Notes: generated by a model not told the origin, from the sequence alone. DNA of 64,000 nt from an uncultured Pseudomonadota bacterium (GCA_937864035.1 CALMIO010000002.1:243877-307876); one strand, 5' to 3'. Counted from the stretch's first letter, positions 14,127-58,960 are shown. A program made the numbers and translations.

Positions 14127-15710
14127 TTGCTAGCAATACCCGTGAACAACCTCAGCGATAAGACAGAAAATCAATTTATTTTTGAGGAATTTATAAGGTT
14201 CATAAAAAACTCTACCGAAAGCGAACTTTTCAGAGCGTATTTCGATCCAATCAAACTAGAATCTTTTGACAGAGATTTAAGAAAGGTTGCTCTTAAAGTT
14301 CCCTCAAAATTTATAAGCTCCCAACTGCAAAATCGCTTTAAAGATATGATCAAAGCTTCTTTTGAGCAAATTGCTGGTATTGCTAATATTAATATAGAGT
14401 TTTTAACAGATCCATCCTTGAGGCCGTCCGCCAGCGAACCTCAGATTGGCGGCAATTCTCATTATATTGGCGACAAAAAAAGTGGGGGTCGCAACGGGGC
14501 AACTTCTGCTTCCTATCTTTTTCGGGGTCTTGAACCAGCTAGATCTCCCTCAAAGATTAACGGCTCAAGGAGTTCTTTAATAAGAGCGACCAATAGCGGT
14601 TTGCCCAGAAGATCTTTTCATAGTCCAAACTCTCAAAATTCGGAGGAAATTCAATCCTCTTTTGAAAAAGAGCTTTTTGAAAAACCAAACTTATTGCCGA
14701 ACTATACCTTTGATTCTTTTGTCGTTGGAAATAGCAACCAGTTTAGCCACGCCGCGGCTTATAGCGTCGCTCAGAATTTGGGGGCAGGCTATAATCCTCT
14801 CTTTATTTATGGCGGTGCCGGGCTTGGTAAAACTCATTTGCTTCACGCTATCGGCAACCATCTTATTAAAACCGCTCCCCATAAAAACGTTATTTATTTG
14901 TCATCTGAGTCTTTTACGAATCTTTTAATCAATGCTTTGCGCTCTGGAAAAATGGAGCTTTTTAAAGAAAGGCTTCGAGGAGTTGATCTTTTGCTAATCG
15001 ACGACATTCAATTTATGCGAGGCAAAGAGAGAACTCAGGAGGAGTTTTTTCACACCTTTAATGCTCTTTATGGGGCAAAAAAACAGATTGTTTTAAGCTC
15101 TGACGCTACCCCAAATTCAATTGGCGGCTTAGAAGAGCGGCTTAAAACTCGTTTTTCATGGGGTCTTATTGCCGACATACAACCCCCAGATTATGAAACC
15201 AGAGTGGCTATTTTGAGAAAATTGGTGGCGGCTCATTCTATTCAGATTGATGATCAGATAATAAACTACATAGCTAACAATCTCTCTTCAAATGTTAGAG
15301 AGCTCGAAGGGGCAATCATTAGGCTGAGAGCGCTTTCGAGCTTAATTAAACCCGACAACCTCTCTTTTGAAAAGGCGGTTTCTATTCTTCGCCCCCTTAC
15401 TCAGCAAAAAATGGTTTCGTTGAGCGTTAATGATATTAAACGAGCGGTTTGTTGTCATTTTAACATTAAAGTTTCCGAACTTTGCTCTAAACTTCGCTCA
15501 AGAAATATATCTTTTCCTAGGCAGATCGCTATGTATCTTTGCCGAAAACATACCGTGCTTTCTTATCCAGAAATAGGCGCTCAATTTGGCGGAAGAGAGC
15601 ATTCTAGTGTTATTCATAGTTGTAGTGTTGTTGGAGAACGACTATTAGTTGACGACAAGCTTATAATGACAGTTAAAGAAATAGAGAAAACATTTTTTGG
15701 AGACAGCTAA
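14127..15710 (+). CDS. dnaA: Chromosomal replication initiator DnaA (TTG start)
   Basis: AAA+ Walker A GGAGLGKTHLLHAIGN, Walker B LLLIDDIQF, sensor regions, and C-terminal DnaA-box-binding domain (VSYPEIGAQFGGREHSSVIH). Confidence 0.92.
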   Translation: MLAIPVNNLSDKTENQFIFEEFIRFIKNSTESELFRAYFDPIKLESFDRDLRKVALKVPSKFISSQLQNRFKDMIKASFEQIAGIANINIEFLTDPSLRPSASEPQIGGNSHYIGDKKSGGRNGATSASYLFRGLEPARSPSKINGSRSSLIRATNSGLPRRSFHSPNSQNSEEIQSSFEKELFEKPNLLPNYTFDSFVVGNSNQFSHAAAYSVAQNLGAGYNPLFIYGGAGLGKTHLLHAIGNHLIKTAPHKNVIYLSSESFTNLLINALRSGKMELFKERLRGVDLLLIDDIQFMRGKERTQEEFFHTFNALYGAKKQIVLSSDATPNSIGGLEERLKTRFSWGLIADIQPPDYETRVAILRKLVAAHSIQIDDQIINYIANNLSSNVRELEGAIIRLRALSSLIKPDNLSFEKAVSILRPLTQQKMVSLSVNDIKRAVCCHFNIKVSELCSKLRSRNISFPRQIAMYLCRKHTVLSYPEIGAQFGGREHSSVIHSCSVVGERLLVDDKLIMTVKEIEKTFFGDS

Positions 15711-16033
15711 AAAACAAAAAAAATAATTCTCCTATTGTCGTTTAAACTCAATATTTAACCCGACAAAAACGAGGCAAGTCGTTAAATTTGTTTTATTTTT
15801 TTCGACAAAAGTTGTTAAATTCTTGTGCGCCTTTTGTTTGTAAGATGTCGTTTATTAAGGTTGTTTTATTTGCTCGTTCTATAAAACATATATTTTTACT
15901 GTTGTTAACTTACAGTTTTTAAACAGTAAAAATATATGTTTTATAGGGGTTTGTTTTGTTTATCTACAACTTTTTGTTGTACTATTACTACTACTATATT
16001 TAATTTATAAATTAATAATATTAAAAAAGTTTT
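15711..16033. other. Candidate oriC: AT-rich dnaA-dnaN spacer with DnaA box TTATCTACA (15960-15968, one mismatch to TTATCCACA) and a downstream AT-rich putative unwinding stretch
   Basis: Seen directly in sequence. Flanked by dnaA and dnaN, the classic location of oriC. Confidence 0.45.
15879..15946. repeat. Perfect 25-bp inverted repeat (arms 15879-15903 and 15922-15946, 18-nt spacer containing GTTAAC)
   Basis: ctataaaacatatatttttactgtt and aacagtaaaaatatatgttttatag are exact reverse complements, followed by a T-rich run. Either a dnaA terminator or an origin-associated hairpin. Confidence 0.7.
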
Positions 16034-17152
16034 ATGCATATAAAAATAAATCAATCCGTCCTCAGTAGCGCCGCTATCAAAATAATCTCTTGTGCCGGAA
16101 AAAAAAGCACCCTGCCAATTCTTGCTAATTTTAAATTAGAAGCAGACAAGAACTACCTTAAAATACTAACTAGCGACCTTGAGATAACAGCAGTTGCTAA
16201 GATAAATTGCGTCTCTTTAAAAAGCGGCACAACAACAGTTAATGCTAAACTTTTTTGCGACCTTATAAGAGAACTTCCAGATGGGGAAATCAACATCTCC
16301 CTCGAGGATGGCGAAAGGTTGGAAATAACATCAGAAAGATCAAAATATAAACTCTCAGTTGTGCCAGCAGAAGGTTTTCCTGATATAAAAGGAACAGATA
16401 TAAAAACAAATGGAAGGATTCGAGCCGGAGATCTTGTTGAGATGATCAATAAAACCATTTACGCGGTTTCTTTTGACCAAACCCAATTAAACATAGGTGG
16501 CATAGGTTGCGACTATAACGAAAATAATTTGATATTTATTGGAACAGATAAAAACAGATTGTCGTTGATTAGCAAAAAAGCAGATGGCCTTAAAATAGAC
16601 AGAGAGAACCTTCCTATATTGCCACGTCGGGTTGCCTCCGAGATTAAACGAATAGTTGAAGCAGTAAACCCAGACGATATTTTAGGAGTCGACATAATAG
16701 ACGGAATGTTTATAGTTGAAGGAGATAACTTTAAAATATCAGCCGCCCTGATCAACGCGAGTTTTATAGGTTATTCTAAATTGCTTTCAGCGGAGGTTGG
16801 AAAAATATGCTCTGTTTTGTCTGGAGAGATCTCATCAGCGATTAAAAGAGCTTCCTTAATGGCAACAGGAGACGATATTAAGGTGGTGGAACTTGAATTT
16901 ACAAAAGATATTATAAACATAAAAGGAGCCTCTCTAGAATCAGGAGAGGGGTTTGAACAGGTTTCTTGTAAATACGATGGAGAGAGTTTTAGGGCTGGTT
17001 TCAACGCTCGATATCTTTTGGATTTTATAAATCCAATAAATTCTGACTCGATAGTGCTTTTTGAATTAAGTGGAGAAAAACGCCCACTAAAGATATATCC
17101 AGCCGATCAAAAAGAATATCTTGGCTTTATAATGCCAATGAGAAACGACTAA
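16034..17152 (+). CDS. dnaN: DNA polymerase III beta sliding clamp
   Basis: 372 aa, MHIKINQSVLSSA N-terminus, position after dnaA, three-domain length. Confidence 0.88.
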   Translation: MHIKINQSVLSSAAIKIISCAGKKSTLPILANFKLEADKNYLKILTSDLEITAVAKINCVSLKSGTTTVNAKLFCDLIRELPDGEINISLEDGERLEITSERSKYKLSVVPAEGFPDIKGTDIKTNGRIRAGDLVEMINKTIYAVSFDQTQLNIGGIGCDYNENNLIFIGTDKNRLSLISKKADGLKIDRENLPILPRRVASEIKRIVEAVNPDDILGVDIIDGMFIVEGDNFKISAALINASFIGYSKLLSAEVGKICSVLSGEISSAIKRASLMATGDDIKVVELEFTKDIINIKGASLESGEGFEQVSCKYDGESFRAGFNARYLLDFINPINSDSIVLFELSGEKRPLKIYPADQKEYLGFIMPMRND

Positions 17153-17283
17153 TAGTTCAATTATTAGATAGAAAATTTTAACAATCCAAAAGTTTTGTTA
17201 AAAATTACCCTTAGGCGTAGGCGCACAATTTTAATTTATTAAAATCCATAGCGAGCCCATTAAAAAATTAAGAAACTCGCTTT

Positions 17284-18378
17284 ATGCAAGTAACCAGAGT
17301 AGAGACAACAAATTTTAGAAATCTTATAAAGCAAACAATTTGTCTTGAACCAACTTTTAATCTAATAGTTGGTCGAAACGGACAGGGAAAAACAAATTTT
17401 TTAGAGGCGCTCTCTGTTTTAAGCAACTCTAAGAGTTTTAGAAGCGCGCAAACAGAAGATTTGATAAACCACAGCGAGAAGCAAGCACAGATTCGCTCAG
17501 AGATATTATCCTTTGAGGTTGTCTCTCGAATAGAAGCTATCTTACATAGAGATCGAAAAGAATTTTTTATAGATGGCAGAAAGTTAAAGAGCTTTTCTGA
17601 ATTAATTGGGAAACTATCTTCAATTTACTTTTATCCAGCAGATCTTGGATTGATTAAGGACGGACCAACATACAGGAGGACATTTGTCGATAAACATAGG
17701 ACATTGATTAACCCAACTGCGTTAACAAAATTTTATGAACTTTCCCGAGTTGTAAAAAACAAACTTCGTCTTATAAAAGATCTGCAAAAAATAACCCCAA
17801 AGGACCTAGAACCTTGGAATAAACTACTAGCGGAAACCTCAATCGAAGTTTGGAAAGAGAGAGATAACTTTATTAAACAAATTGGCGCGGAGGCGCGCGC
17901 TCTTTATTTTGAAATTACCGATGGAACTGGTGAATTGCGGCTCAGGCTAAAAAATAACAACCTTGATAAATCAAACATGGATTTTGACATTCTTTTTGGG
18001 ACAATTTCGGCTCGCGCTTCGGAAGAAATCGCGCGCAGGACTCTTTTGGTTGGCGCTCAACAAGATGAAATTGAAATAACGATAGACGGCAAAGACACCC
18101 GAAAATTTGCTTCTCAAGGAGAGGCAAGATCAATTGTGCTCGCTTTAAAGATGGCAACAATAACTAGCTTTGAAAATGAACGAAAAGAATCTCCATTGGT
18201 TCTTTTTGACGATGTTGACGCGGAGCTTGATATTCGAAGAAAAGAATTGTTTTTTAACATATTGCTTCAAAAAAATCGCCAGATAATAGTTACCTCAACC
18301 GAAGAATTGTCACAAAAAATAACAAAAGGTAGAGAATATAAAATTATCAAAGCAGAAGGTGGTTTTTTAGAAGGTTAA
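17284..18378 (+). CDS. recF: DNA replication and repair protein RecF
   Basis: Walker A FNLIVGRNGQGKTNFLEAL, C-terminal LLFDDVDAELD Walker B/D-loop, 364 aa. Confidence 0.88.
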   Translation: MQVTRVETTNFRNLIKQTICLEPTFNLIVGRNGQGKTNFLEALSVLSNSKSFRSAQTEDLINHSEKQAQIRSEILSFEVVSRIEAILHRDRKEFFIDGRKLKSFSELIGKLSSIYFYPADLGLIKDGPTYRRTFVDKHRTLINPTALTKFYELSRVVKNKLRLIKDLQKITPKDLEPWNKLLAETSIEVWKERDNFIKQIGAEARALYFEITDGTGELRLRLKNNNLDKSNMDFDILFGTISARASEEIARRTLLVGAQQDEIEITIDGKDTRKFASQGEARSIVLALKMATITSFENERKESPLVLFDDVDAELDIRRKELFFNILLQKNRQIIVTSTEELSQKITKGREYKIIKAEGGFLEG

Positions 18379-18440
18379 AAGGGTTAGCCCAACAAAAATC
18401 TTCGTCTCATAAAAAGACACCGAAAACGCCTTAAAACTAT

Positions 18441-18469
18441 TTGCTATGAACCCCCAGTTGGTATATAAT
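18441..18469 (+). promoter_or_regulatory. Sigma70-like promoter upstream of gyrB: TTGCTA, 17 nt, TATAAT
   Basis: -35 TTGCTA at 18441-18446, 17-nt spacer, -10 TATAAT at 18464-18469, about 55 nt upstream of the gyrB ATG. Confidence 0.45.
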
Positions 18470-18482
18470 AATATGGTATTAG

Positions 18483-20960
<2,478 letters not shown>

Positions 20961-21964: not shown

Positions 21965-22762
21965 ATGTCAAAAATAAGATCTGTTATATTAGCTGGCGGT
22001 CGGGGAACGAGAATGCGAGTTGATCTGCCAAAAGTTTTGGTTTCTACCCTAGAAAAACCCTTACTTGCGCATGCAATTGACACCCTAATGGGGGTCGATA
22101 TTGATAAAATTATTTTAGTTGTCTCTTATAAAGCTGAACTAGTGGTTAAATTTATTAACCAAAACGTTGCACCCCTTAAAACACCGATTTTTTTCGCAAA
22201 ACAAGAGCAACCACTTGGCACCGGAGACGCGCTCAAGGCGGCTTGGAATTTTGATAGGAGCTTTTCAGGAACATTTTTAGTTACCAGCGGAGATGTGCCG
22301 CTCACAAAACCCCAAACAATAAAAAATTTATTAGAGCTTCATAAAGGCAGCAGTAATACCATAAGCTTCGTTTCTTTTAGGTATGGTGAGGAAGAGGTGG
22401 CGACTTCTCCTTACGGTCGAATAAAGAGAGACTCATTTGGTAAGGTTGTAAAAATTATAGAAAAAAAAGACTGCTTGCCTGAAGAACTTGGAATTGCCGA
22501 ACAAAACGGAGGAATTTACGTAATTGAAAGCTCTTTTTTGGAGCTTGGATTTTACCACCTAAACAACAATAATGCTCAAAACGAATATTATTTGACAGAC
22601 TTGGTAGAAATAGCGATAAATAACAATTTAAAAGTGGAAGCGTATGATATAGCAAGTCGCCGAGAAATCTTAGGGGTAAACACCCAAGAAGAGCTGGCGG
22701 TAATAAATCAAATTTTGGAAAATGAAAATATTCGAGAAAGAGATCTTAGCCAAAGGAATTAG
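21965..22762 (+). CDS. Sugar-1-phosphate nucleotidyltransferase resembling the N-terminal uridyltransferase domain of GlmU only (265 aa, no LbH acetyltransferase domain)
   Basis: VILAGGRGTRMRVDLPKVL is the GlmU-type signature, followed by GTGDA. Protein ends where the GlmU LbH domain would begin. Confidence 0.65.
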   Translation: MSKIRSVILAGGRGTRMRVDLPKVLVSTLEKPLLAHAIDTLMGVDIDKIILVVSYKAELVVKFINQNVAPLKTPIFFAKQEQPLGTGDALKAAWNFDRSFSGTFLVTSGDVPLTKPQTIKNLLELHKGSSNTISFVSFRYGEEEVATSPYGRIKRDSFGKVVKIIEKKDCLPEELGIAEQNGGIYVIESSFLELGFYHLNNNNAQNEYYLTDLVEIAINNNLKVEAYDIASRREILGVNTQEELAVINQILENENIRERDLSQRN

Positions 22763-23060
22763 GTTTTCAATCACAGAAAACGAGAGAGAAGTCGCGCGCG
22801 CCTATCTTTATCTAATGAACAATGATTTACACCAAGAGCCGTTTGGTTTACTGGAAGATGTTTTTGTTGATGAGAAAGACAGAAGCGCTGGCTTAGGAAA
22901 AAAAATAGTTCAAACGGTTATAGATAAAGCCAAAGAACTTGGATGTTATAAACTTATCGCTACTAGCCGCTACAGCAGACCGCAAGTGCACGAGATGTAT
23001 TTAAAACTTGGCTTTAAAGATCAAGGCAAAGAGTTTAGAATTGATTTTACAAAAGAGTAA
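22722..23060 (+). CDS. GNAT family N-acetyltransferase (112 aa), overlapping the preceding gene by 41 nt
   Basis: GNAT acetyl-CoA motif AGLGKKIVQTVIDKAKELGCYKLIA. Confidence 0.7.
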   Translation: MKIFEKEILAKGIRFSITENEREVARAYLYLMNNDLHQEPFGLLEDVFVDEKDRSAGLGKKIVQTVIDKAKELGCYKLIATSRYSRPQVHEMYLKLGFKDQGKEFRIDFTKE

Positions 23061-23081: not shown

Positions 23082-25175
23082 CTACCTAAGATCAGCTTCG
23101 CTGATCTTGGAGTTTTTTGATCCTTCAATTTCAACTTGCAGAGGGGAAATTGCTATCAAAGAGCGCGGAAGAGGACACCCTATTTTTTTTGAAGGAACAA
23201 GCTCTCGGCAGGGTGTTGTTTGGCGGTTGATAGTTATTTTGGGGGGGGACTCATAGGTATTAAACAGCAAAATAAGAGTTCGATAATCATGTCTGGCTGG
23301 AATAAAAAATCTCGTGCTTGGAGACTCAAATAAGCGAGATTTAATTTTTATTAACAAAACCAGCTCGTTTAAAATTCTTACCACCTCTAAATAGTTGGAG
23401 TATTTTGCCAGACCCGACAAAATATATTCGCGCCGATCTACCGGATATTTATCAAGCCGGAGTATTATGTATTCAAGCTCTGGAAATTGAGCTAGGGTCA
23501 TTAACGAACGCTCGTCGGGAAAGTTGGCGAACTTTTTAGGTAAGAGCTGATGCAATCTTGGTCGTTGTCCACTGTAGCCATTGATACTTTTGATTTTTGG
23601 CGAGCGAATTGAGTTTAAATGCTCCATGTTGGTATTTGCCCAATCTTTCCAGCTTGTTATTTCGCCATTTTTGTCGAGTGGCGTTGTAACAAGCGGTAAG
23701 CTAAGAACCACCTTTTCATTTAAATAATTTGGCAAAGAGAGTTTTTTGGGGATCGGACCAAAGTTAATCGCTTGCGAATCGAACAGGTTAAATAATATAG
23801 AAAGTATCAATAAGATTAAGGAAAAACGGGATATCAGCAGACAATTTTTCTGATTTTGAAGGTGGATCAATTTTTCTTTAAGATTTTTTTTGAAGCCTTT
23901 CTTTTCCAACAAAAGAAGCAGAGAAACAACCAGAGCAAAATGAGAGAGAATGACGAAACGAGAGCAATCCCTCAGACTATCAAATCCGGGGAAAAAGTCA
24001 AATAAAAAATGATAGGGCGAAATATAAAAGCTACTAGAAATATTTTTTATATTTTCGGCCGGAGGGCCAAGAGAGAAAAGAAGTCCAAACCAAAAAATTA
24101 AAAGCGTGAAACTAAGAGGGAAAAGTTCTTTTTTTGTCCTAAGGGGAATTGATAAAGTAAATAAAAAGACAATCCATAAAAAGATGCTCTTAAGCCAAAG
24201 GGGAACATTCAATTCGGTTGCCGATAATAAAACCAGAGTTGCCAAAAGCTGAAAGAGCGAGGAAAGAAAAATATTTTGATGGTCAGAGGATTTTCTTTGA
24301 GCTTTCCAAGTTGAGATTAGCGCCAAGACAAAAGATAGAATAACAAAAAAAGAGAAAGAGGAGGCGGTTTCTCCGGAAAAAGGCAGAAGGTTTAAGACCG
24401 ATAGTTTAAAAGCAAACGGCTCATATAGGCGGCGCGCGCCGAAACTTTGCTTTACCACCAGATAAGGCGCGATAAAAATGTATAAAAAAGGTAGGGGAAT
24501 GAGCGCAAAAGAAAATCGCTTAATTGAGAACTCTCCCCTTAAAAAAGAGAGTACGACAAAAAGAAAAATAATTACTCCGATAAAGATAGTATAATAAACC
24601 GAGCAGAGAAAAGATAAACTTAATATGACTCCGCAGGAAAAAGCCGAAAGGGCCGTTGGTTTTTCGTTGAATAAATAAAGAGAGCGAAGTGCAAGGGGGA
24701 TGAAGAAAAAAAACAACAGTTGTGGGTGTCCTAAATTCGCTGAAAAATACGGCAATGACATTACCGCCACTCCTCCAAGGATAGATCTGCCAAAGGAAAT
24801 TTTTAAGACGCGCAGTAGAAGAAAAGAGCAAAATCCGTTTAGGGTTTCAGCTAAAAGTAACAACAAATTATAAGAAAGAGCTTCGCTAACCCCAAACGAG
24901 AGAATAATTTTCCAAAATAAAGCGGGTAAAATAAAAGAATCGCTCCAAGCCAAAGCTAATCCGTGTGGATAAAATTGAGGGATCTCAAACCAAGGCAGGC
25001 TAAAAATTGATTCTGAGACGATGTTACTTAGCCAAAAATATAGGCCGCCATCTCCTACTGCCCCACCGATAATATGTGTGTTAAAATAAGGTACTCCTGA
25101 TAGCCTTAGAAGGATCTCTAAAACAACAAAAAGAAAAAAAACAAAAAAATATTGTGGTTTAACGGGGTAGCCCAT
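23082..25175 (-). CDS. Large polytopic membrane protein (697 aa) with C-terminal soluble domain; putative GT-C-like glycosyltransferase, paralogous to 56113-57735
   Basis: More than 10 predicted TM segments. N-terminal loop DGGLYFWLSN...FYPHGLALAWSDSFILPA aligns with DAFQFLWNIWW...FWPFGSRLYLHTLTEGLLLPA of the 540-aa protein. Confidence 0.5.
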   Translation of the reverse strand: MGYPVKPQYFFVFFLFVVLEILLRLSGVPYFNTHIIGGAVGDGGLYFWLSNIVSESIFSLPWFEIPQFYPHGLALAWSDSFILPALFWKIILSFGVSEALSYNLLLLLAETLNGFCSFLLLRVLKISFGRSILGGVAVMSLPYFSANLGHPQLLFFFFIPLALRSLYLFNEKPTALSAFSCGVILSLSFLCSVYYTIFIGVIIFLFVVLSFLRGEFSIKRFSFALIPLPFLYIFIAPYLVVKQSFGARRLYEPFAFKLSVLNLLPFSGETASSFSFFVILSFVLALISTWKAQRKSSDHQNIFLSSLFQLLATLVLLSATELNVPLWLKSIFLWIVFLFTLSIPLRTKKELFPLSFTLLIFWFGLLFSLGPPAENIKNISSSFYISPYHFLFDFFPGFDSLRDCSRFVILSHFALVVSLLLLLEKKGFKKNLKEKLIHLQNQKNCLLISRFSLILLILSILFNLFDSQAINFGPIPKKLSLPNYLNEKVVLSLPLVTTPLDKNGEITSWKDWANTNMEHLNSIRSPKIKSINGYSGQRPRLHQLLPKKFANFPDERSLMTLAQFPELEYIILRLDKYPVDRREYILSGLAKYSNYLEVVRILNELVLLIKIKSRLFESPSTRFFIPARHDYRTLILLFNTYESPPKITINRQTTPCRELVPSKKIGCPLPRSLIAISPLQVEIEGSKNSKISEADLR

Positions 25176-28156: not shown

Positions 28157-31100
28157 TTATAAGGCTTTTTCTGATCCCAGGCGCAATAAAGATTCTTTTA
28201 AAAAACCTCCCCAAGCAGTTTTGGCTTCGAGTAGTTTTCTAGATTCGCCCTGAAAAACTATTTTTCCACCTTCCTCTCCCGACTTTGGTCCAAGCTCAAT
28301 GATCCAATCGGCGTTAGCCAATGCGATCTCGTTATGTTCGATCATAATGATGGTGTTTCCCGAACTAGCTAATTTTTTTAGAAAAGCCATCAGTTTGGCA
28401 ACATCGCTATTGTGCAAACCGGTAGTTGGTTCGTCCAAGATAAATAAGGTGTTGGATGCGTTTTCGATTGCTAACTGCTCTGCTAGTTTAATTCTTTGGC
28501 TTTCGCCTCCAGAGAGTGAGTTTGAGGGTTGTCCTAAAGTTAGATATCCTAAACCCAATTCACAAACAGCTAATACCACCCGATGAATGTTTTTGTAAGA
28601 AACAAAAAGATTTTTAGCCTCTTCGAAGGTTAAACCTAGTATTTGGTCAACACTCAAGCCTTCAAATTTCGGAATTTTTGCTAGTTCGCCATAGCGCGAA
28701 CCACCGCAAGTTTCACAGATCATTACAGCATCCGCCAAAAAACTCATTTCTAGCTTAATCTCTCCCAAACCTTTGCAAATTTGGCAACGCCCCTCGCCAG
28801 CGTTGAAGGAAAAATAGCTTGGCGAAAAACCTCGAGCTTTAGCCTCTAAGGTATTGGCGAAAATTTTTCTTATATGATCCCAAATTCCGAGATAAGAAGC
28901 CGGTGTTGAGCGAGAGGTTCCACCTATCGGAGATTGATCGACGGTCTTGACACCGATTATTTCAAGATCGCTAGTAATTTCACCGTATGGAGAAAGCCAT
29001 TTTTTTTCTTTGCCATATTTTGAACAGATAGTTTCCGCGATAGTTCCATTTACTAAACTGCTTTTACCAGCTCCAGATACCCCTGCCACCACGACTACGT
29101 ATTGTAATGGAATTTTTAAATCCAATGATTTTAGGTTGTTTAAGCGGGCATTTTTAACGGTGAGCCACTTTGTTAAAAATTTTTTTTCGGAAGCTTCGAC
29201 CTCAATATTATTGAAAGAAAGAGCTTCAGCGACTTTAAAATTTTTTGAGTCTCCGTTATAGATAATTTTGCCACCGTTTTTACCCCCACCCGGACCAACG
29301 TCAATCACATAATCAGCCGCTCGAATTGATTCGAGATCGTGCTCAATCATTAAAACGGAGTTGCCTTGCTCGACCAGTTCCCTGAGAGCCGCTAGCGTTA
29401 ATCTATTTTCGAGAGGATGAAGCCCCGCGCTTGGTTCGTCAAATATATAAAACGTGCCCGTAAGGGGCGAGCCTATAGCTGAGGCAATTCTGAGCCTTTG
29501 CAGTTCGCCGCTAGAGAGTTGGCGGGCGCTTCTGTCAAGCGGCAGGTAACTCAAGCCCAGTTTAATTAACGTTTCTAACCTCCTTTCGCACTCTGAGATA
29601 ATAACCGGAGCTAGCTTCTCTAGTTTGGGAAAGCTTTTAAGGTTAATACTCTTTAAAAAGCCTAGCATTTCGGGGGGCGTTTTTGAGGCGGCTTCGGCTA
29701 TATTAAGACCGTTGATTGTCAAACAGAGAGCTTCCCTTTTTAATCTGGCGCCGCCGCAAAATTTACAAAAAGCGCCAGTTTCTTCAAAGCCGCTTCCCGA
29801 ACAAGATGGACAAGCACCGCGTCTAGAGATAAATGAGAGATCTTCCGGATCGGGTTTTGAAAACCCCCGTCCGCACTCAGAGCAACTTCTTTTGGCGCTA
29901 TAAAGATAAGAATTGTTATCAGAAAAAATTTCGAGCGCTCCTTCTCCAAGAGCTAGCGCCTTGTTAACGCACTCTATTAGCAAGTCAGAGGGAATATTAG
30001 CTGGATTTAATTTGCCAATGACGTATTTAATCCAGTGTTGTTTGTTGCGATCAAGAGAGTCAAGCGCAGAATTTGGCGAACAAAACAGGATTCGATCAAT
30101 TTGAATTTCGTCGTAACCTTCGTCTATTGCTCTTTTAATAATTTCATTGTGCTTGCCCTTTTTGCCGGAAACTATTGGAGCCATTATTCTGATTGATTTA
30201 TTATAGCTCGTTTTGATTTCGGCGGCGATCTCTTCCGCGCTTAGGTCTGAAATTTTGGAAGCAGGGTGATCCGGGCAGTGTTGTAATCCGCATTTGGCGT
30301 AAAGCAATCGCAAATAATTGTAAGCTTCGCTCATTGTGCCCACGGTTGATAATTTTGAGGGCTGAAAGGTGTGCTGATAAACGCAAACAGTTGGAGGTAC
30401 GCCGGAAATATCCAAGATGTCAGGCTTTTTAAGCTCAGAGACGAATTGGCGGGCGTAAGGAGAAAGTGTTTCCAAATATCTTCTTTGCCCCTCGGCGTAG
30501 ATAATATCTTTTGCGATAGTTGATTTCCCAGATCCAGAAACGCCGGTTAAGGCAACTAATTTATAAAGAGGTATTTTGATATCTATGTTTTTTAAGTTGT
30601 GTTCTTTCGCCCCAAAAATTGAAATTTCAGCAAAAGATCCATCCTTTTTGAAATTTTTTTGAATAATTTTATTGGTTTGATCGTCTAATTTTGATCGTTC
30701 TTTAAGAGCAATCTGCGTATAAGATCGTGGATTAAGCTCCCCGCTAATAAAGTCATTCGGAGTTCCAACCTTAATTAATTCTCCTCCCTCAGAGCCTCCT
30801 TCGGGACCAAGATCAATAATCCAATCGGCGCTGGCTATTAGATCAAGATTATGCTCGACACAAATTATACTTTGTCCACGATCTGTTAGCTCGCGAAAGA
30901 GTCGAACTAAGCGAGCAACATCTTTGCGGTGAAGCCCGGTGGTTGGTTCGTCAAATATTAAAAGCGCCTTTTCTTTCTCGGCTTCAACAATAAAGGGGGC
31001 CAATTTAAGTCTTTGAGACTCTCCGCCCGAAAGTTCGCTTAACGGGTGTCCGAGGGTTAAGTGTCCCAAACCTAATTTTTCTAACACCGAAGTTATTTTT

Positions 31101-33439
31101 GTTAGTTCGGGCAGATCGGAAAATAAATCGCCGCAATCAGAAACGGTGGTTGCCAAAAGATCCGCGGCATTTTTGTTGCGAATAAAGCATTCTAGAACCT
31201 TTCCCGAAAAACGCTTCCCGAGGCAAACCTCGCAGGTTAAATAAACATCTGCTAAAAATTGCATCTCTTCCACTAAATAGCCGGCGCCTTTGCAGGTCGC
31301 GCAACGACCGCGGTCGACGTTAAATGAAAAATGTGATTTTGTTAGTTTCCTAAGTTTGGCATCAGGAGAATTGGCGAGTTGGTTTCGTAAAACCTCCCAG
31401 ATTCCAGAATAAGTGGCGATGTTTGAGCGCGGGCTTTTAGCAAGAGAAGTTTGATCAACAAAAAGGATTTCATCAAAAGAATCTTTGCCGAAAATTTGTT
31501 CGCAGGAACCAGGGGAACTTTGAAAAATAACCTCTTTTACTAAGGTGCTTTTTCCGCTTCCGGAAACGCCGCTTATCGCGATCAACTTGGCGGCAGGAAT
31601 GTCAAGATCGAAACCTTTTAAATTACGAGCTCGTGCAGATTTTATGCTAATAGCGATCTTTGCCTTTTCCGAGTTCTCAACACCTTTTTCTGTTTCAAAA
31701 AAGGGCAATTGAAATTTGTTTGATTCTCCAAAATAAACGAGCGAGCCGCCATTGTTTCCAGCTCCGGGACCAATTTCTAGAACATTATCGGCGTTTTTTA
31801 GATATTCCAAATCATGTTCAACTATCAACACGGAATTTCCTTGATCTCTCAGGTCGTTTATAGCGGAGATTAAATTTTTCGTATCCCGCGAGTGCAAGCC
31901 AACAGAAGGCTCATCTAAAACAAACTGAGAAGAAACAATTCCACCGGAAATTGCGGCGGCGAGATTTAGGCGTTGAGTTTCGCCGCCAGATAAGGTGCGA
32001 GCTTGTCGGTCAAGGGTTAAATAACCCAAACCAAGTTTTAATAGATAATCGAGGCGCGACAAAAGATTTTGAAAAACTCCTGTCAGCTCTTTGGGAAAAG
32101 TGGAGAGAAGTAATGCTTTTTGATATTGCGAATCAAACCACGGTTTTAGCTCTTTTATCTGTAGCCTCCAAAGATCGGCGATAGACAATCCGCCAAGCCG
32201 ATAAGCAAGAGCGCTTCGCTTTAATCTTGAACCCTCACAACTCTTACACAAAACCTGAGAGCGATATTTTGAGAGAAAAATTCGCACATGAGTTTTGTAA
32301 CTTTTTTTCTCTAGTTTTTTAAACCAGTGATTTAAGCCAACGTATTCTCTGCTTTTGTGATTTAAAATTAAATCTTTTTGCTCTTGTTTAAGCTTTTTCC
32401 AAGGAGTTTTTAAATTTATTCCTTTAGTTTCACAAAAATTCAACAACCTGCGCCTAAAAATTTTCATTGACGCGCCCGCCCAAGGATGAATAGCGTTTTC
32501 TTCGATCGAAAGATCTTGATTTGGCGCTACCTTGCTCGGATCGATCTCGAGATTAAAACCGAAGCCTTTACACTCTTGGCAGGCGCCATACGGATGATTA
32601 AAGGAAAAAAGAGATGGCTTGGGAGCATCTATTGTTATATCGGAACAACCGCAACTTGGGATTTTGTTGTAGTTTATAACATCTATTTTCGGACCGGTAG
32701 CGCCCTCTGTTTGCGCCACCAAACTAGCCTTTCCGCCAGAAATAGAAAAAGCCGCCTCAACGCTTTCGGCGACTCGCTCTATTTTAAGAGTTTTTTTAGT
32801 TAATCTATCTAGCAAGATCAGAAGATAATCTTGTTCTTTCAAAAATGCGGGGCTTAACTCAGAAAGGTTGAGCAGGTTGCAATTTTTTTGATTTAGAACC
32901 CTTTCATAGCCAAAAAGAATTAACCTTTCAACCTCTTCAACAGGATTTTTTTTCTTAAGATTAAAGTTTGAGCATATATAAAAGATCGCACTTGGAGATC
33001 TTTCAAAAAGTTCAAAGATTTCTCTGGCGATTTTATCGCTGGTCCAATAAGAAAGCTGATTGCCGCAATTGGAACAAAATGGAGCTGCTAAGTTTGACCA
33101 GATGATTTTCAAGTAATCATCAATATTGCTTAAGGTGCCAACGCTCGATCTTGAGCTGGTAATTTTGGTTTTTTGCCTGATGGCGATCGCAGGGCGGACA
33201 TTTTTGATCGAATCAACATTTGGTCTTTTGACCTTCTCAAAAAATTGTCTTGTATAAGGAGAGAATGTTTCCACATAGCGCCGTTGACCTTCGGCATAAA
33301 CCGTATCAAAAGCTAGCGACGATTTGCCGGATCCGGAAACTCCGGTAACAACCGTCATTTGATCGTGAGGAATATCTATAGAGAGATCTTTTAGATTATG
33401 CTCTCTCGCCCCTTTAATTTCTAAATAGCGGCTTTTCAA
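28157..33439 (-). CDS. uvrA: Tandem-duplicated UvrA (two complete UvrA units fused, 1760 aa, four ABC ATPase modules)
   Basis: Four Walker A sites (GVSGSGKSS, GVSGSGKST, GVSGSGKST, GVSGAGKSS). UvrA N-terminal signature appears twice (EHNLKDLSIDIP...YAEGQRRYVETFSPYTRQF near aa 10-65 and EHNLKNIDIKIP...YAEGQRRYLETLSPYARQF near aa 940). Multiple CxxC zinc modules. Confidence 0.9.
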   Translation of the reverse strand: MKSRYLEIKGAREHNLKDLSIDIPHDQMTVVTGVSGSGKSSLAFDTVYAEGQRRYVETFSPYTRQFFEKVKRPNVDSIKNVRPAIAIRQKTKITSSRSSVGTLSNIDDYLKIIWSNLAAPFCSNCGNQLSYWTSDKIAREIFELFERSPSAIFYICSNFNLKKKNPVEEVERLILFGYERVLNQKNCNLLNLSELSPAFLKEQDYLLILLDRLTKKTLKIERVAESVEAAFSISGGKASLVAQTEGATGPKIDVINYNKIPSCGCSDITIDAPKPSLFSFNHPYGACQECKGFGFNLEIDPSKVAPNQDLSIEENAIHPWAGASMKIFRRRLLNFCETKGINLKTPWKKLKQEQKDLILNHKSREYVGLNHWFKKLEKKSYKTHVRIFLSKYRSQVLCKSCEGSRLKRSALAYRLGGLSIADLWRLQIKELKPWFDSQYQKALLLSTFPKELTGVFQNLLSRLDYLLKLGLGYLTLDRQARTLSGGETQRLNLAAAISGGIVSSQFVLDEPSVGLHSRDTKNLISAINDLRDQGNSVLIVEHDLEYLKNADNVLEIGPGAGNNGGSLVYFGESNKFQLPFFETEKGVENSEKAKIAISIKSARARNLKGFDLDIPAAKLIAISGVSGSGKSTLVKEVIFQSSPGSCEQIFGKDSFDEILFVDQTSLAKSPRSNIATYSGIWEVLRNQLANSPDAKLRKLTKSHFSFNVDRGRCATCKGAGYLVEEMQFLADVYLTCEVCLGKRFSGKVLECFIRNKNAADLLATTVSDCGDLFSDLPELTKITSVLEKLGLGHLTLGHPLSELSGGESQRLKLAPFIVEAEKEKALLIFDEPTTGLHRKDVARLVRLFRELTDRGQSIICVEHNLDLIASADWIIDLGPEGGSEGGELIKVGTPNDFISGELNPRSYTQIALKERSKLDDQTNKIIQKNFKKDGSFAEISIFGAKEHNLKNIDIKIPLYKLVALTGVSGSGKSTIAKDIIYAEGQRRYLETLSPYARQFVSELKKPDILDISGVPPTVCVYQHTFQPSKLSTVGTMSEAYNYLRLLYAKCGLQHCPDHPASKISDLSAEEIAAEIKTSYNKSIRIMAPIVSGKKGKHNEIIKRAIDEGYDEIQIDRILFCSPNSALDSLDRNKQHWIKYVIGKLNPANIPSDLLIECVNKALALGEGALEIFSDNNSYLYSAKRSCSECGRGFSKPDPEDLSFISRRGACPSCSGSGFEETGAFCKFCGGARLKREALCLTINGLNIAEAASKTPPEMLGFLKSINLKSFPKLEKLAPVIISECERRLETLIKLGLSYLPLDRSARQLSSGELQRLRIASAIGSPLTGTFYIFDEPSAGLHPLENRLTLAALRELVEQGNSVLMIEHDLESIRAADYVIDVGPGGGKNGGKIIYNGDSKNFKVAEALSFNNIEVEASEKKFLTKWLTVKNARLNNLKSLDLKIPLQYVVVVAGVSGAGKSSLVNGTIAETICSKYGKEKKWLSPYGEITSDLEIIGVKTVDQSPIGGTSRSTPASYLGIWDHIRKIFANTLEAKARGFSPSYFSFNAGEGRCQICKGLGEIKLEMSFLADAVMICETCGGSRYGELAKIPKFEGLSVDQILGLTFEEAKNLFVSYKNIHRVVLAVCELGLGYLTLGQPSNSLSGGESQRIKLAEQLAIENASNTLFILDEPTTGLHNSDVAKLMAFLKKLASSGNTIIMIEHNEIALANADWIIELGPKSGEEGGKIVFQGESRKLLEAKTAWGGFLKESLLRLGSEKAL

Positions 33440-35785: not shown

Positions 35786-36658
35786 ATGAAAGGAATAATT
35801 CTTGCCGGCGGATCTGGCACAAGGCTTTATCCGATTACCAAGGCTGTTAGCAAACAGCTCTTGCCAATATATGACAAACCAATGATTTATTATCCGCTTT
35901 CAACCCTAATGTTGGCTGGAATCAGGGACATTCTTGTTATTACTACCCCACAAGATGCCGAGAGTTTTAAAAGACTTTTAGGAGATGGCGCTCAGATTGG
36001 TATTGATATTAGTTATGCCGAGCAACCTTCCCCGGACGGACTTGCCCAAGCTTTTATTATTGGAGAGCGTTTTGTCGGCAACTCCAACGTGGCCTTGGCT
36101 TTGGGTGACAATATATTTTTTGGGCAAGGGCTTGGTGAGTCTTTGCAAAGAGCAAAATCGAAAAAAAATGGGGCAACTGTTTTTGCTTATCAAGTTGCCG
36201 ATCCAGAACGTTACGGCGTAGTCGAGTTTGACGCGGAGGGGCGAGCCGTTCAAATAGAAGAAAAACCAAAGGCTCCTCGTTCAAATTTCGCAGTGACAGG
36301 ACTTTATTTTTATGACAACGAGGTTGTTGCTTATGCCAAAAGCCTTAAACCGTCGGCGCGTGGTGAGTTAGAGATTACTGACATTAACAAAATTTATTTA
36401 GAGAAGGGTTCATTACAGGTTGAAAAACTTGATCGCGGCACTGCTTGGCTTGATACCGGCACCTATGAATCGCTGATGCAGGCGGGGCATTTTATTCAGA
36501 CAATTCAGGAGCGTCAAGGATTAATGGTTGCTTGCTTGGAAGAGATCGCCTTTCAAGCAGGCTACATAGATAAAGATCAATTAGAAAAGATTGGTTTGAA
36601 GATGAAAAATAATAGCTATGGCAAATATCTCCTAAAACTAGCACAAGATGAGCTTTAA
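35786..36658 (+). CDS. rmlA: Glucose-1-phosphate thymidylyltransferase
   Basis: [39 protein letters not shown] is near-identical to the RmlA N-terminal consensus. 290 aa. Confidence 0.88.
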
Positions 36659-37898
36659 TCAAATTTTCAGAAAAGCCAACTTAAAGTTGCCCCTCCTTTT
36701 AACCCTTTTCTTTATTGTAATTACAAATGCTCTTTTTGTTAGTTGTTGGGTTGTTGCTGAAAATTTTGACAATAAAAAAGATCCTTCTGGAGATAATTTT
36801 TTAAAAAAAACTTCTCCTAGTGGTTGCGAATTGGTTTCAGAAACTTTAACTAACGTTGTTGCAGTCCGTGGGCTTGTTTCAAAAGAGCTGGTTGCTTGCT
36901 CTGTGTACTCAAAAAAAGAGGTAGAAAAGTATATTAGAGACACCCTTAATGAACAATTACCTCCTGAGAAACTTCGCCATGAAGAGATAGCGTTAAAAGC
37001 TTTGGGGCTTTTGCCGGAAGAATATAACTATAAAGATGGTTTGATAAGTTTATATTTATCTCAACTTGGAGCTCTTTATGATCCTCGCAAGAAACAATTT
37101 ATTATGGTTGATTGGTTGCCTAGTTTGTTGCAGGCGCCAGTCGTGGCTCACGAGTTGACTCATGCTTTGCAGGATCAACATTTTCGTCTTGATAAGTTGA
37201 TCGATCCAAAGATCGAAAACGGAGATCTGTTGTTGGCAAGGCTTAGCTTGGCAGAAGGAGATGCGACCGCTTTGATGTATGATTTTTCATTCTCAGGGTT
37301 GCTTGGCGGGAAAAAAGTAGCCGATCTTGCCGAAGTAGATGGTCTAGTTGGGCAAATGCAACTTTCTAGCAGAATAATTTCGGGTCTTTCGGGAGTTCCT
37401 AAATTTTTGCAAAGATTGTTATTATTTCCTTATAGCGCTGGTTTTAAATTTGTTCATTTTTACCTTAAAAGGGGAGGTTATGCCGAAATTGATAAGATAT
37501 TTCAAGATCCCCCTATAACTACGGCGCAGATAATCCATCCAGCAAGTTATTTAAAAAAAGAGCGTACAGGTAAAAAAATAGAGTTAAATCTTAGCGGCGG
37601 CGCAAAGATTATTTATTCCGATGTTTTGGGGGAATTTGTTTTAAGAGAATTTTTAGAGACTTTTTCTATTGCGGAACACGTTATAGATTCGATAGCTTCA
37701 AAGTGGCAAGGGGATTTGATGGCAATTGTTCAAGAAAATCAAACGAATAATCTAAAAATTATCTGGTTGGTTTCTTATGGAGATCGAGAGAGCGCCAAAA
37801 AGTTTAAGGATCTTTTTAATCTTCCCTCTTTAGGGAAAAAATTTAGCGTTACTTTTGGGAGCGATGATCATTTGGTGCGCATCTCCAAAGAGCTTTAG
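36648..37898 (+). CDS. Putative secreted or membrane-anchored zinc metallopeptidase (HEXXH)
   Basis: N-terminal hydrophobic segment and [15 protein letters not shown] (HExxH) motif. Overlaps rmlA by 11 nt, suggesting co-transcription. Confidence 0.45.
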
Positions 37899-55448: not shown

Positions 55449-56069
55449 ATGAACAATATAGTAGGAGTTGAAATTAAAGAGCTAAAAACACACCGTGACG
55501 AAAGAGGCTTTTTCAGGGAACTTATTCGTTTTAATGATCCGTTTTTTTCTCTGTCGAATGGTAAAACCTTGGTTAAGGGGGAGGATTCAATAAATCCATT
55601 TGCTCAATGGAGCCATAGCAAGATGATTAAAGACGTCGTTAAAGCGTGGCATTACCATCACAAGCAGATCGATTGGTGGTATATATCTGGTGGAGTGGTT
55701 TTGGCGGTTTTAGTTGATTGGCGCGAAGAAAGCCCGACTTACAAAAAACGCATTGAACTTTTGATGGGCTGTGGGGATAGTAAGTTTTTAGCGCCACCTT
55801 CTCTTGGCACAGAGATAAAAAACATTGAAAGCCAAATTGTTCGCGAAATATGCGTTAAAATTCCGCCGGGAGTGCTTCATGGCTTGCGCGTTCTGAGCGA
55901 TTCCGCCGAAATTATGTATATTACCAGCGAAATTTATGACCCTAGCGAAGAGGGGCGACTGCCTTTTGATTCCCCAGAGGTTGGCTTTGACTGGGGCGAG
56001 GGCGCTCTGGTGGTTGATAATGACAAGCGGTTTTTTTTGCCAAAGTCTGAAAGAAGGTTGCTTTACTAA
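55449..56069 (+). CDS. rmlC: dTDP-4-dehydrorhamnose 3,5-epimerase-like cupin
   Basis: THRDERGFFRELI matches the RmlC His-Asp-Arg-Gly motif, followed by WHYH. 206 aa. Confidence 0.75.
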   Translation: MNNIVGVEIKELKTHRDERGFFRELIRFNDPFFSLSNGKTLVKGEDSINPFAQWSHSKMIKDVVKAWHYHHKQIDWWYISGGVVLAVLVDWREESPTYKKRIELLMGCGDSKFLAPPSLGTEIKNIESQIVREICVKIPPGVLHGLRVLSDSAEIMYITSEIYDPSEEGRLPFDSPEVGFDWGEGALVVDNDKRFFLPKSERRLLY

Positions 56070-56112: not shown

Positions 56113-57735
56113 TCACCCCTTTTCAACGAATAAGGTTATTAGATTGTCCTGATATTTCGCTTGAAGCCAAGGAATTTGCCCGGCAAGCTCAAGTCGCTTT
56201 TCATCTACCGAACTTACTATTAAACCCTCAATCGCGAGCGCTTTGTAATCTTTGAAAATTGCTCCTTCCAAAAAGGAAATTTTTCCATCAAGGTATTTGA
56301 TAAATTTGTTTTTTCTGTAGAAAGCGAGAGCTGCTTTGGGTTTTCTTGAAATATTTCCGTGAACAATCGGTGTTTCGTGAACAGTTTGGTTAAGCAGAGC
56401 TAAATCTTGGGAACTAGAGATGTCGTACAGAGCGTCAAGCTTAAGCTCCTTGATGTTATTTAAAAGGGGCGATATCGGCAGTTGCATCGTTGGCGATTTT
56501 TGAGGGAAAAACTCTATCAAGATTAAAAATAACCAGAAAATTAGATAATTTTTTTTTAAAGAAATTTCCCTCGCAAGCCGACAAATCGTTAACATTAAAA
56601 GCAATTCTCCAAAGATTGCCAGTCGAGCCGGCACCGAAGGGAAAAATGGCAAATGTTCAGCGAATAGTTGCCAGATATAGTTGGTGAAAAAAACATTTCC
56701 TGAGAGTTTAATTATTGGACCAAGCGCTAAAATAAAAAACATCAATGAGGAAGAAAATAAATATAACGTCTGAGATGACTTACTGCGCCAAAGCAACGAT
56801 CCGACTAAAATGAGAAGACTAAACCCTATGTATAAACCTCGTTCGGCGGAATTAAGCTCGCTCGCCGAACCAGCGATGGCCTGTCTTGGTTTGCTAAAAA
56901 AATATAATTTTTCTCTTTCAATAAAGTTAATTAAACGGGCAGAGTGGATTTCAGCGGAGTGGTTTTCTTGAAAGTTTCCCGAAAGAGTATCTTTGCTTAC
57001 GTTAATTAAATAGGGCGAAGCAAAGAGCATTGCAAGCACGATAATTAAAGTGAATCTTATACCAAGCGAGTAAAAAATCTTTTTTTCTTTTTGAGCGACA
57101 AAAGGAGCGCTTAAAACAAGAACAAGCGCCGTTAATATTCCGAACAAAGCGATAAAATAAAAATAGTAAAGATTGATTACGGTTAAATATCCAACAAGAG
57201 TTGCCGCTAGCAGGAAAAGAATTTTTTTGCCACTTACACTTAGAGCGGCGGCAATAGCTAGCGGCGCCGGAAAAAATCCCAAGAAATTTAAATGCCCTCC
57301 TTCTAAGTGTCCAAGAAAAAAAGGGTGAAAGCTAAATGCTAGCGACAAGACCAAGCTCAACCAGAAGTTTTTTGAAAAAATATAAAATAGTGCGTAAGCT
57401 GAGATTCCGTTGGTGACAAAGCAGAAAATAATGACCAAGTTAAAAATATCGGCGATAGTAAAATCTTTAAGAAGTATGGCGGCGGGCAGAAGCAAACCTT
57501 CGGTTAGAGTGTGCAAATAAAGCCTACTGCCAAAAGGCCAAAAAATGTAATCGGAATAATGTATGGAGTTTCCAAATTCAGCTACCCTTTCTTTTAGCCA
57601 CCAGATGTTCCAAAGAAACTGAAAGGCATCTGGATAAGTGGCAAGAATGTTATTACTCGAGGGATATTTTTGAAGAGCGCAAAAATAAAAAAGGGTCGAT
57701 CCAAAAATTAAGAGTAGCGCAAAAATCCCTTTCAT
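56113..57735 (-). CDS. Large polytopic membrane protein (540 aa), paralog of 23082-25175, putative GT-C-like glycosyltransferase
   Basis: More than 12 TM segments. N-terminal loop aligns with that of the 697-aa protein. Confidence 0.5.
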   Translation of the reverse strand: MKGIFALLLIFGSTLFYFCALQKYPSSNNILATYPDAFQFLWNIWWLKERVAEFGNSIHYSDYIFWPFGSRLYLHTLTEGLLLPAAILLKDFTIADIFNLVIIFCFVTNGISAYALFYIFSKNFWLSLVLSLAFSFHPFFLGHLEGGHLNFLGFFPAPLAIAAALSVSGKKILFLLAATLVGYLTVINLYYFYFIALFGILTALVLVLSAPFVAQKEKKIFYSLGIRFTLIIVLAMLFASPYLINVSKDTLSGNFQENHSAEIHSARLINFIEREKLYFFSKPRQAIAGSASELNSAERGLYIGFSLLILVGSLLWRSKSSQTLYLFSSSLMFFILALGPIIKLSGNVFFTNYIWQLFAEHLPFFPSVPARLAIFGELLLMLTICRLAREISLKKNYLIFWLFLILIEFFPQKSPTMQLPISPLLNNIKELKLDALYDISSSQDLALLNQTVHETPIVHGNISRKPKAALAFYRKNKFIKYLDGKISFLEGAIFKDYKALAIEGLIVSSVDEKRLELAGQIPWLQAKYQDNLITLFVEKG

Positions 57736-57919: not shown

Positions 57920-58960
57920 ATGGACGTTTTTAAAAGATTCTTATTGCTGGTAAGTTGTTTTGTGATCTGCCACATAGAAAAAGGACTTGCTCAGCCGGCT
58001 CGATGTGTTAAGGGAGTTAATACAGTTAGTGGATTAAAATCAATCGACATTGACGATCTCAAAACGCGCTTAGGAGCGAAAACAATTCGTTATTGCATAG
58101 AAATTGGAGGTGGTGTCGATCAAATGAGCGAAGCTCAATATCTCTTGGCGTTTAATCAGATGGTCGATCAATTTGAAAGCGAATTATTACCCGGTTTAGT
58201 GGCAAATGGCATTAAAGCTATACTTTGTCTCGGCTCTCCTCCCGGAGGATTCGTTGATCGCTCCTCAAGGCTTCCACAGCACCGAATTTTTTCCGCTCCT
58301 TGGGCGCAAAATACTTTAAAATCAATATGGGAGATGCTTGCGGTGCGCTTTAAGGATCATCCGAATATTGTTGCTTTTCAACTTGTGAGCGAGCCAGCAG
58401 TCGGCTCTTTCATTCCGGTTGGCTTACAAGGGTGGTACGATCTGCAAGCAGAGTTGGTTAATATCGTCAGATCGCGCGTGGCAAACAAACCAATAATAGT
58501 TACCTCTGAATATTCACAGGCTACCCGTCTTTCTCGGATAAAGTTGCCCGCTGATTCTGGTCAAATTTGGTACGCAGTTCATTTTTACAACCCGTATAAA
58601 TTTTTAAAACAAGGAATAGAATCTCGCCCTTATAAGATCGCTTATCCATCAAGCTCTGCTAATTTAAATATGGTGCTAAAGTCGATCAGCAGGATAACCG
58701 CTTTTGCTAGAAAAAAACGGGCGCAGATAGTGATTACCGAATTTTCGACTACACGCTTTGCTCCGAAAAATAGTGGGCTTAACTACCTGCAAGACGTGCT
58801 GGCTCTTTTTAAAAAAAATAAATTTGGTTGGATTTATCATGCTTGGCGTGAGTCGGATTATTGGAGCTTAGAACTGCCAGCCCGCGAAGATAAGCCAAAT
58901 GCTTCCTTTACCAAGCGCGCCACGACTATTAAAAAATATCTGCGCGGGTCAGGTTGCTGA
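57920..58960 (+). CDS. Secreted GH5-like (clan GH-A TIM-barrel) glycoside hydrolase with Ser replacing Asn in the NEP acid/base motif
   Basis: Signal peptide, strand-4 FQLVSEPAV (NEP is SEP here), HFYNPY (HxY), nucleophile block IVITEFST, and a conserved Trp after strand 8 (YHAW). Confidence 0.55.
   Translation: MDVFKRFLLLVSCFVICHIEKGLAQPARCVKGVNTVSGLKSIDIDDLKTRLGAKTIRYCIEIGGGVDQMSEAQYLLAFNQMVDQFESELLPGLVANGIKAILCLGSPPGGFVDRSSRLPQHRIFSAPWAQNTLKSIWEMLAVRFKDHPNIVAFQLVSEPAVGSFIPVGLQGWYDLQAELVNIVRSRVANKPIIVTSEYSQATRLSRIKLPADSGQIWYAVHFYNPYKFLKQGIESRPYKIAYPSSSANLNMVLKSISRITAFARKKRAQIVITEFSTTRFAPKNSGLNYLQDVLALFKKNKFGWIYHAWRESDYWSLELPAREDKPNASFTKRATTIKKYLRGSGC

Follow-up and report, generated by a model that had tools for sequence, protein, structure and literature searches.

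Two distantly related membrane proteins with a predicted GT-C glycosyltransferase fold in an uncultured Pseudomonadota bacterium

A stretch of 64,000 nucleotides from an uncultured Pseudomonadota bacterium (GCA_937864035.1 CALMIO010000002.1:243877-307876, in the following called the window; G+C about 39%) encodes two large polytopic membrane proteins, here named A and B. Are these two proteins really related to each other, or do they look alike just because of their hydrophobic composition, and which function could they have in the cell? A preliminary description of the window had placed them in one family of paralogues. Both open reading frames (ORFs) were found again with the same coordinates and lengths on the minus strand:

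23082..25175, minus strand: protein A, 697 amino acids (aa); predicted GT-C-fold membrane protein with 13 transmembrane helices, N-terminus in, C-terminus out
56113..57735, minus strand: protein B, 540 aa; predicted GT-C-fold membrane protein with about 11 transmembrane helices, distant homologue of A

The NCBI entries identical to A and B (PKD37_02855 and PKD37_02980) belong to a metagenome-assembled genome (MAG) of an Oligoflexia bacterium, and both are labelled "hypothetical protein".

The direct comparison of A with B by BLASTP is marginal, with E 0.017 and 25% identity along 116 N-terminal aa, and the overall identity is about 19%. Because the pairwise similarity is this weak, family alignments were built, with an A family of 20 sequences (25-30% identical to A) and a B family of seven (28-32% identical to B). 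When these two families are compared with hhalign, they match with a probability of 97.9% (E 4.8e-13) over 421 collinear columns, which extend from the first loop into the start of the C-terminal soluble domain. In addition a hidden Markov model (HMM) of the A family, which was built without B, was run on all 45 window ORFs that are 100 aa or longer. B obtains 20.6 bits from it, spread over two collinear stretches, while the other polytopic proteins of the window (COX1, two DUF2298 proteins, a PMT_2 protein and two ABC permeases) do not exceed 2.2 bits. None of 1000 shuffled versions of B reaches the real score (maximum 4.5 bits), although the residues were shuffled within 20-residue windows and the hydropathy profile was thereby kept. 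The reciprocal test is weak: against the HMM made of the seven B-type sequences A scores -0.2 bits, which is matched by 18 of 1000 shuffles.

This reciprocal score and a BLASTP match that reaches E 0.017 at best could be taken as a sign that A and B are unrelated proteins which share a hydrophobic composition and a few chance motifs. Such an explanation does not account for the long collinear hhalign match, for the shuffled sequences and the other polytopic proteins of the window, none of which score, or for the polar residues found in invariant columns (see below). Moreover, the same fold with the same PDB neighbours was predicted independently for A and for B. Because this family-level evidence is strong, the composition-bias explanation is effectively refuted, and we regard it as extremely improbable that the proteins are unrelated. 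A and B are distant relatives within a single family, which has no name. The term "paralogous" used in the preliminary description therefore stands as far as homology is concerned, but the recent duplication it suggests does not, as the two proteins have low overall identity and belong to separate, old subfamilies.

The N-terminal loop that had been proposed as the common element is indeed present in both proteins. The A motifs D42-GGLYF-W48, F68-Y-P70-H-G72 and W77-S-D79-SFIL-P84 stand in register with D36-AFQFL-W42, F65-W-P67-F-G69 and T78-E79-GLLL-P84 of B. A joint alignment of 27 sequences from the A family, the B family and more remote matches has few conserved columns, all of them polar or structural. 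The aspartate D42/D36 is invariant (27 of 27), and W48/W42 as well as P70/P67 are kept in 25 sequences. Further columns of this kind are G149-H150/G147-H148, Y195/Y191, G370-P371/G339-P340, P396/P363, R406/R371 and G533-Y534/G460-[FYN]. Within the A family D42 is found in all 20 aligned sequences and in 142 of 145 representatives (clusters at 50% identity), the remaining three having gaps at this position, and D36 is found in all seven sequences of the B family. D79 of A, which hhalign aligns with E79 of B, is kept in 144 of the 145 representatives. At least 98% of these representatives also keep N103, H150, Q152, R248, E252, G370, P396, R402, R406, P494, N532, G533, Y534, G536 and P553, and the same level applies to D42 and D79. 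In the C-terminal region the conserved motifs are N-G-Y-S-G-Q-R in A and G-F-L-A-R-x-P-R in B. A similarity by hydrophobic bias without conserved loop residues, which the preliminary description had named as the case against a family, is thus not what we find, since the loop residues are conserved.

Structure models were available for A (AlphaFold; pLDDT 77, pTM 0.83) and for B (pLDDT 91, pTM 0.91). The model helices together with hydropathy and K/R-rich loops indicate 13 transmembrane helices and an N-terminus inside for A; for B the model and hydropathy indicate the same core with about 11 transmembrane helices, so that the polytopic topology assumed earlier holds for both. By the same kinds of evidence loop 1 and the C-terminal domain are predicted to be extracytoplasmic in A and in B. 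The parts of the proteins discussed below are encoded as follows:

24885..25085, minus strand: first periplasmic loop of A, residues 31-97, with Asp42, the F-Y-P70-H-G hairpin and W-S-D79
25050-25052, minus strand: Asp42 codon of A, proposed catalytic residue
23085..23780, minus strand: C-terminal periplasmic domain of A, residues 466-697, 232 aa
57628..57630, minus strand: Asp36 codon of B, counterpart of Asp42 of A
56116..56511, minus strand: C-terminal periplasmic alpha/beta domain of B, residues about 409-540, about 130 aa

A topology prediction had been suggested as a means to locate conserved acidic residues, and it puts D42 and D36 into the predicted first periplasmic loop, which in B spans residues 22-93. 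In the model of A this loop consists of a juxtamembrane helix (42-55) starting from D42, a beta-hairpin around F-Y-P-H-G and a helix after W-S-D79. Two other periplasmic loops of A are conserved. The loop 245-271, modelled with low confidence, carries R248 and E252, and the loop 369-403 carries G-P, P396 and R402, with R406 opening the next transmembrane helix. The cytoplasmic loop 424-445 is very basic (K/R-rich), and because it precedes the last transmembrane helix, the C-terminal domain of A should lie outside the cytoplasm. This domain starts with an alpha/beta part containing the invariant N532-G-Y-S-G536 and F552-P553, followed by a beta-sandwich (residues about 596-690) which is absent from the B model. 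It had been described as a soluble addition of about 250 aa in the longer protein; the soluble domain is there, but it is not wholly extra, as B possesses one too and the first part of the two is alignable. What A has in excess of B is the beta-sandwich of about 100 aa and two transmembrane helices.

The comparison with known structures gives a clear-cut result. A Foldseek search with A against the PDB gave 24 matches at E <= 0.001, which are GT-C proteins without exception, among them STT3 (1.5e-7), AglB, AftD (TM-score 0.48), DPY19, ALG12 and PglB. In every structure search with A and B, STT3, AglB and PglB come first or close to it, and PMT and Aft enzymes match the two proteins structurally as well as the oligosaccharyltransferases (OSTs) do. 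GT-C enzymes use lipid-linked donors at the outer face of the membrane and have a DxD motif, or a modified form of it, in an extracytoplasmic loop (PMC8035078, PMC11127046). A and B are polytopic within the range of this class (8-13+ transmembrane helices), their predicted structures superpose on known GT-C enzymes, and both have a long first extracytoplasmic loop with a conserved acidic residue, which is a single Asp and not a strict DxD. The predicted folds of A and B are the GT-C glycosyltransferase fold.

Given these predicted GT-C folds, it is natural to suppose that the proteins take part in envelope glycosylation, and A and B are best read as polyprenyl-phosphate-sugar-dependent periplasmic glycosyltransferases. 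We consider it probable that each of them represents an old subfamily of the same unnamed family of membrane glycosyltransferases with a GT-C fold of the GT-C_A type (STT3, PMT, ArnT, Aft), and that they work in the following way. The mechanism is derived from the fold and the conserved residues, with known GT-C enzymes as precedent. A and B would reside in the inner membrane with the N-terminus in the cytoplasm. The donor, to judge from the fold, would be a polyprenyl-phosphate-linked sugar or glycan which has been flipped to the periplasmic face. D42 of A and D36 of B, at the start of loop 1, could serve as the catalytic or acceptor-activating residue, and H150/H148 and R406/R371, in A together with R402, R248 and E252, may be ligands of the donor phosphate or of a metal. 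The C-terminal periplasmic domain would be the acceptor-binding module that positions the acceptor. We see in the two proteins no new kind of system but a branch, not yet characterised, of an enzyme class that is well known.

A hint at the substrate of B comes from its genetic neighbourhood, where the following genes are found:

57920..58960, plus strand: glycoside hydrolase of family GH5 (cellulase family) with a signal-like N-terminus; divergent from B; Pfam Cellulase E 6e-20
53449-55437, plus strand: 662-aa ORF without Pfam match; its start overlaps the stop of a YceG (MltG-like) gene
55449-56069, after the 662-aa ORF: RmlC-like gene of the dTDP-sugar epimerase fold, just upstream of the convergent B

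The best solved relatives of the GH5 protein are endoglucanases (E 6e-31). A metagenome scan for relatives of B gave at least one locus, and the association with GH5 was counted over six contexts with enough flanking sequence: in four of these six a GH5 gene adjoins the B homologue, in three different orientations (divergent in the window, co-directional on the P0029 contig, convergent on the P0026 and P0024 contigs). The GH5 protein of the P0024 contig shares 40% identity with that of the window. No GH5 gene is adjacent at the distant relatives P0031 and P0033. We therefore regard GH5 as a candidate functional partner of B, and the recurrence of an endoglucanase-like gene beside B suggests that its product or acceptor may be a beta-linked envelope or extracellular glycan. 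A search of five B-family loci gave no homologue of the 662-aa ORF.

Several observations weigh against a glycosyltransferase function of A and B. The aspartate conserved at the start of loop 1 is a single one without a DxD pair, and every family member is annotated as "hypothetical protein". The 45 window ORFs scanned (100 aa or longer) did not yield any gene for a GT2 polyprenyl-phosphate glycosyltransferase or for a flippase, be it GtrA-type or other, and such genes were not seen beside the A/B homologues examined either. Furthermore, 14 residues of a conserved periplasmic loop (257-271) are missing from the A protein of the window, and G/T stand in place of the His268 and Glu270 present in 114 and 142 of the 145 representatives. 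This protein is also the most divergent member of its family, with at most about 30% identity to the 19 other aligned members, and its best identity anywhere is no higher than 42%, over one third of the length. Because of the missing loop residues and the replaced His268/Glu270, this particular copy could be specialised, weakened or impaired. A and B might also have the GT-C fold without being glycosyltransferases, for instance as a scaffold or lipid-binding subunit similar to PIG-U/GAB1 or as transferases of a group other than sugar, which seems unlikely to us.

A different question is whether A and B are OST-like, that is relatives of STT3, AglB and PglB which transfer a glycan en bloc from undecaprenyl-pyrophosphate to proteins or another acceptor, with the invariant N-G-Y-S-G of A or G-[FY] of B in the acceptor-binding role of WWDYG. 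The leading position of STT3, AglB and PglB in all structure searches would agree with this, as would the OST-like architecture of A with 13 transmembrane helices and a C-terminal periplasmic domain that may resemble the one of AglB, and also the low model confidence of loop 245-271, as expected for a flexible substrate-gated loop. However, the WWDYG motif was not found in A, in B or in the family alignments, nor is there a DxD pair. Hmmscan of A and B against Pfam up to E 10 detects neither STT3 nor PF19830 nor any other family, and the family profiles of A and B, searched against the PDB sequences, gave nothing meaningful and no solved OST at E <= 10. No pgl-like glycan assembly genes are located nearby, and PMT and Aft enzymes match A and B equally well. 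Because the tests for GT66 membership by motif and profile failed and other GT-C enzymes fit just as well, we give the OST-like function a low weight and hold it to be quite unlikely. The same low probability applies to an unrecognised bacterial OST-like branch with an STT3-like core and an AglB-core-like domain that would serve a new class of acceptors in Bdellovibrionota; if it existed, the product of B could be a beta-glycan trimmed by the neighbouring, conserved GH5.

Glycosyltransferases of the GT-C type thus remain our preferred reading of both proteins, and the family is widespread. An exhaustive search with the A-family profile found 13,318 clusters (50% identity) at E <= 0.001 and 1,128 clusters at E <= 1e-30, including more than 150 full-length matches of 690-800 aa. 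Close relatives of A are concentrated in Bdellovibrionota: a motif-based genome scan gave 54 loci, nearly all of them from MAGs of uncultured Bdellovibrionota/Oligoflexia. The genes around A in the window are:

21965-22762, plus strand: sugar-nucleotidyltransferase-like gene (NTP_transferase), 265 aa; convergent with A
22722-23060, plus strand: GNAT acetyltransferase gene, 112 aa; overlaps the NTP_transferase gene by 41 nt; convergent with A
28157-33439, minus strand: UvrA-like, tandemly duplicated ABC ATPase, 1,760 aa; UvrA_DNA-bind, two UvrA_inter and three ABC_tran stretches
36648-37898, plus strand: 416-aa gene without Pfam match; syntenic genes in related loci carry DUF8575

Comparison of 59 loci revealed no informative glycan-related neighbour of A. 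The NTP_transferase gene was considered as a partner, and it occurs within 10 kb of A homologues in only 12 of the 59 loci and at variable distance. The GNAT gene recurs in none of them, and a CNNM/CorC gene is not conserved, being present at one locus. All three were rejected. The NTP_transferase and GNAT pair as such looks as if a bifunctional uridylyltransferase/acetyltransferase had a non-canonical counterpart split into two genes. In 27 of 51 assessable Bdellovibrionota loci a duplicated UvrA-like gene (1,760-1,814 aa) is located upstream of the A homologue and shares its strand. The two genes directly adjoin each other in 16 loci; in the window three genes lie between them. We treat this association as lineage synteny. 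In 15 loci the 416-aa gene lies upstream in the opposite orientation, and in about half of these it adjoins the UvrA-like gene.

Apart from A and B, the window encodes three more large membrane proteins, and a canonical block of origin-region genes:

14127-20960, plus strand: dnaA-dnaN-recF-gyrB
45350-47386 and 47383-49611, minus strand: tandem pair of DUF2298 proteins, 678 and 742 aa, with frames overlapping by 4 nt
61717-63954, plus strand: PMT_2/PMT (GT39-like) protein, 745 aa; Pfam match from residue 326, about 320 N-terminal residues outside the match

A and B had been called a second family besides these proteins. This label is correct because there is no relation at the profile level: the A family matches the PMT_2 protein of the window with an hhalign probability of 0.1% and the DUF2298 protein with 0.4%. 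Housekeeping genes of the replication-origin region (dnaA, dnaN, recF, gyrB, cytochrome oxidase, topoisomerase) surround the five large membrane proteins, whose genes are not clustered, and, given the canonical origin gene block, the region is a housekeeping region and no glycan island. Nucleotide-sugar genes are scattered as well (RmlA-like at 35786-36658, and the RmlC-like gene upstream of B). The extensive capacity for surface glycosylation or glycopolymer assembly which had been deduced from the five proteins is plausible but was overstated, considering that the genes are scattered and that the 45 ORFs scanned yielded neither a polyprenyl-phosphate glycosyltransferase nor a flippase gene.

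Bdellovibrionota are predatory bacteria, and envelope glycans matter in their interaction with prey. As the family has neither a name nor a usable Pfam or NCBIfam model, the GT-C label would give thousands of "hypothetical proteins" an annotation that can be tested. As points to probe it offers a candidate catalytic Asp, along with candidates among the His and Arg residues, and the putative acceptor domain in the periplasm. The pairing of B with GH5 is a concrete experimental starting point for the glycan. Many uncharacterised GT-C branches of the DUF type already exist, and a specialist would not be surprised by one more. A characterised member would nevertheless probably found a new CAZy family, for which GT136 is a GT-C precedent (PMC11127046).

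Known families come closest to A and B in sequence by way of distant matches of the B profile. Neither A and B nor the 27 close relatives gave a match in direct scans with Pfam and NCBIfam (for the relatives with Pfam at E <= 1), and YfhO (PF09586) is likewise without a match in this set. Of the distant matches, P0033 passes the Pfam threshold of DUF2079 (41.4 vs 28.2 bits) and P0036 that of PTPS_related (32.2 vs 26.4 bits). P0036 stays below the gathering cut-off of YfhO (23.2 vs 28.5 bits) and P0041 is near the threshold of DUF6044. Precomputed faint matches to DUF6311 (PF19830) are listed for A, P0003, P0013, P0026, P0033, P0038 and P0039; direct hmmscan did not reproduce them for A and B (E <= 10) or for P0033, P0038 and P0039 (E <= 1). 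In the literature on DUF6311, on DUF2079 with GT-C and on DUF2298 nothing useful was found. A conceivable role of A and B would be to attach the mannoses reported for Bdellovibrio lipid A, but the literature on the enzymes of this mannosylation yielded no relevant paper on proteins of the A/B type. The neighbourhood of YfhO and GT-C which had been suggested for comparison was therefore well chosen, since distant relatives of B pass DUF2079 and PTPS_related and approach YfhO.

YfhO, DUF2079, PTPS_related, DUF6044 and DUF6311, which are families of bacterial membrane proteins of the GT-C type, together form the nearest sequence neighbourhood of A and B. The two proteins differ from the YfhO-type families in length, in the C-terminal domain and in having no direct Pfam match. 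YfhO glycosylates teichoic acids (PMC8035078). Unlike YfhO-type systems, A and B occur in Gram-negative Bdellovibrionota and have no adjacent CsbB-like GT2 or GtcA flippase. With STT3, AglB and PglB (GT66) they share the fold but no detectable sequence similarity, no Pfam STT3 match and none of the motifs WWDYG, DK/MI and DxD; moreover B has fewer transmembrane helices than these enzymes and A carries the extra beta-sandwich. The mycobacterial arabinofuranosyltransferases AftA and AftD and the protein O-mannosyltransferases PMT (GT39) show about 10-12% identity to A and B in structural alignments, and their soluble domains, MIR in PMT and carbohydrate-binding modules in AftD, are different from the C-terminal domains of A and B.
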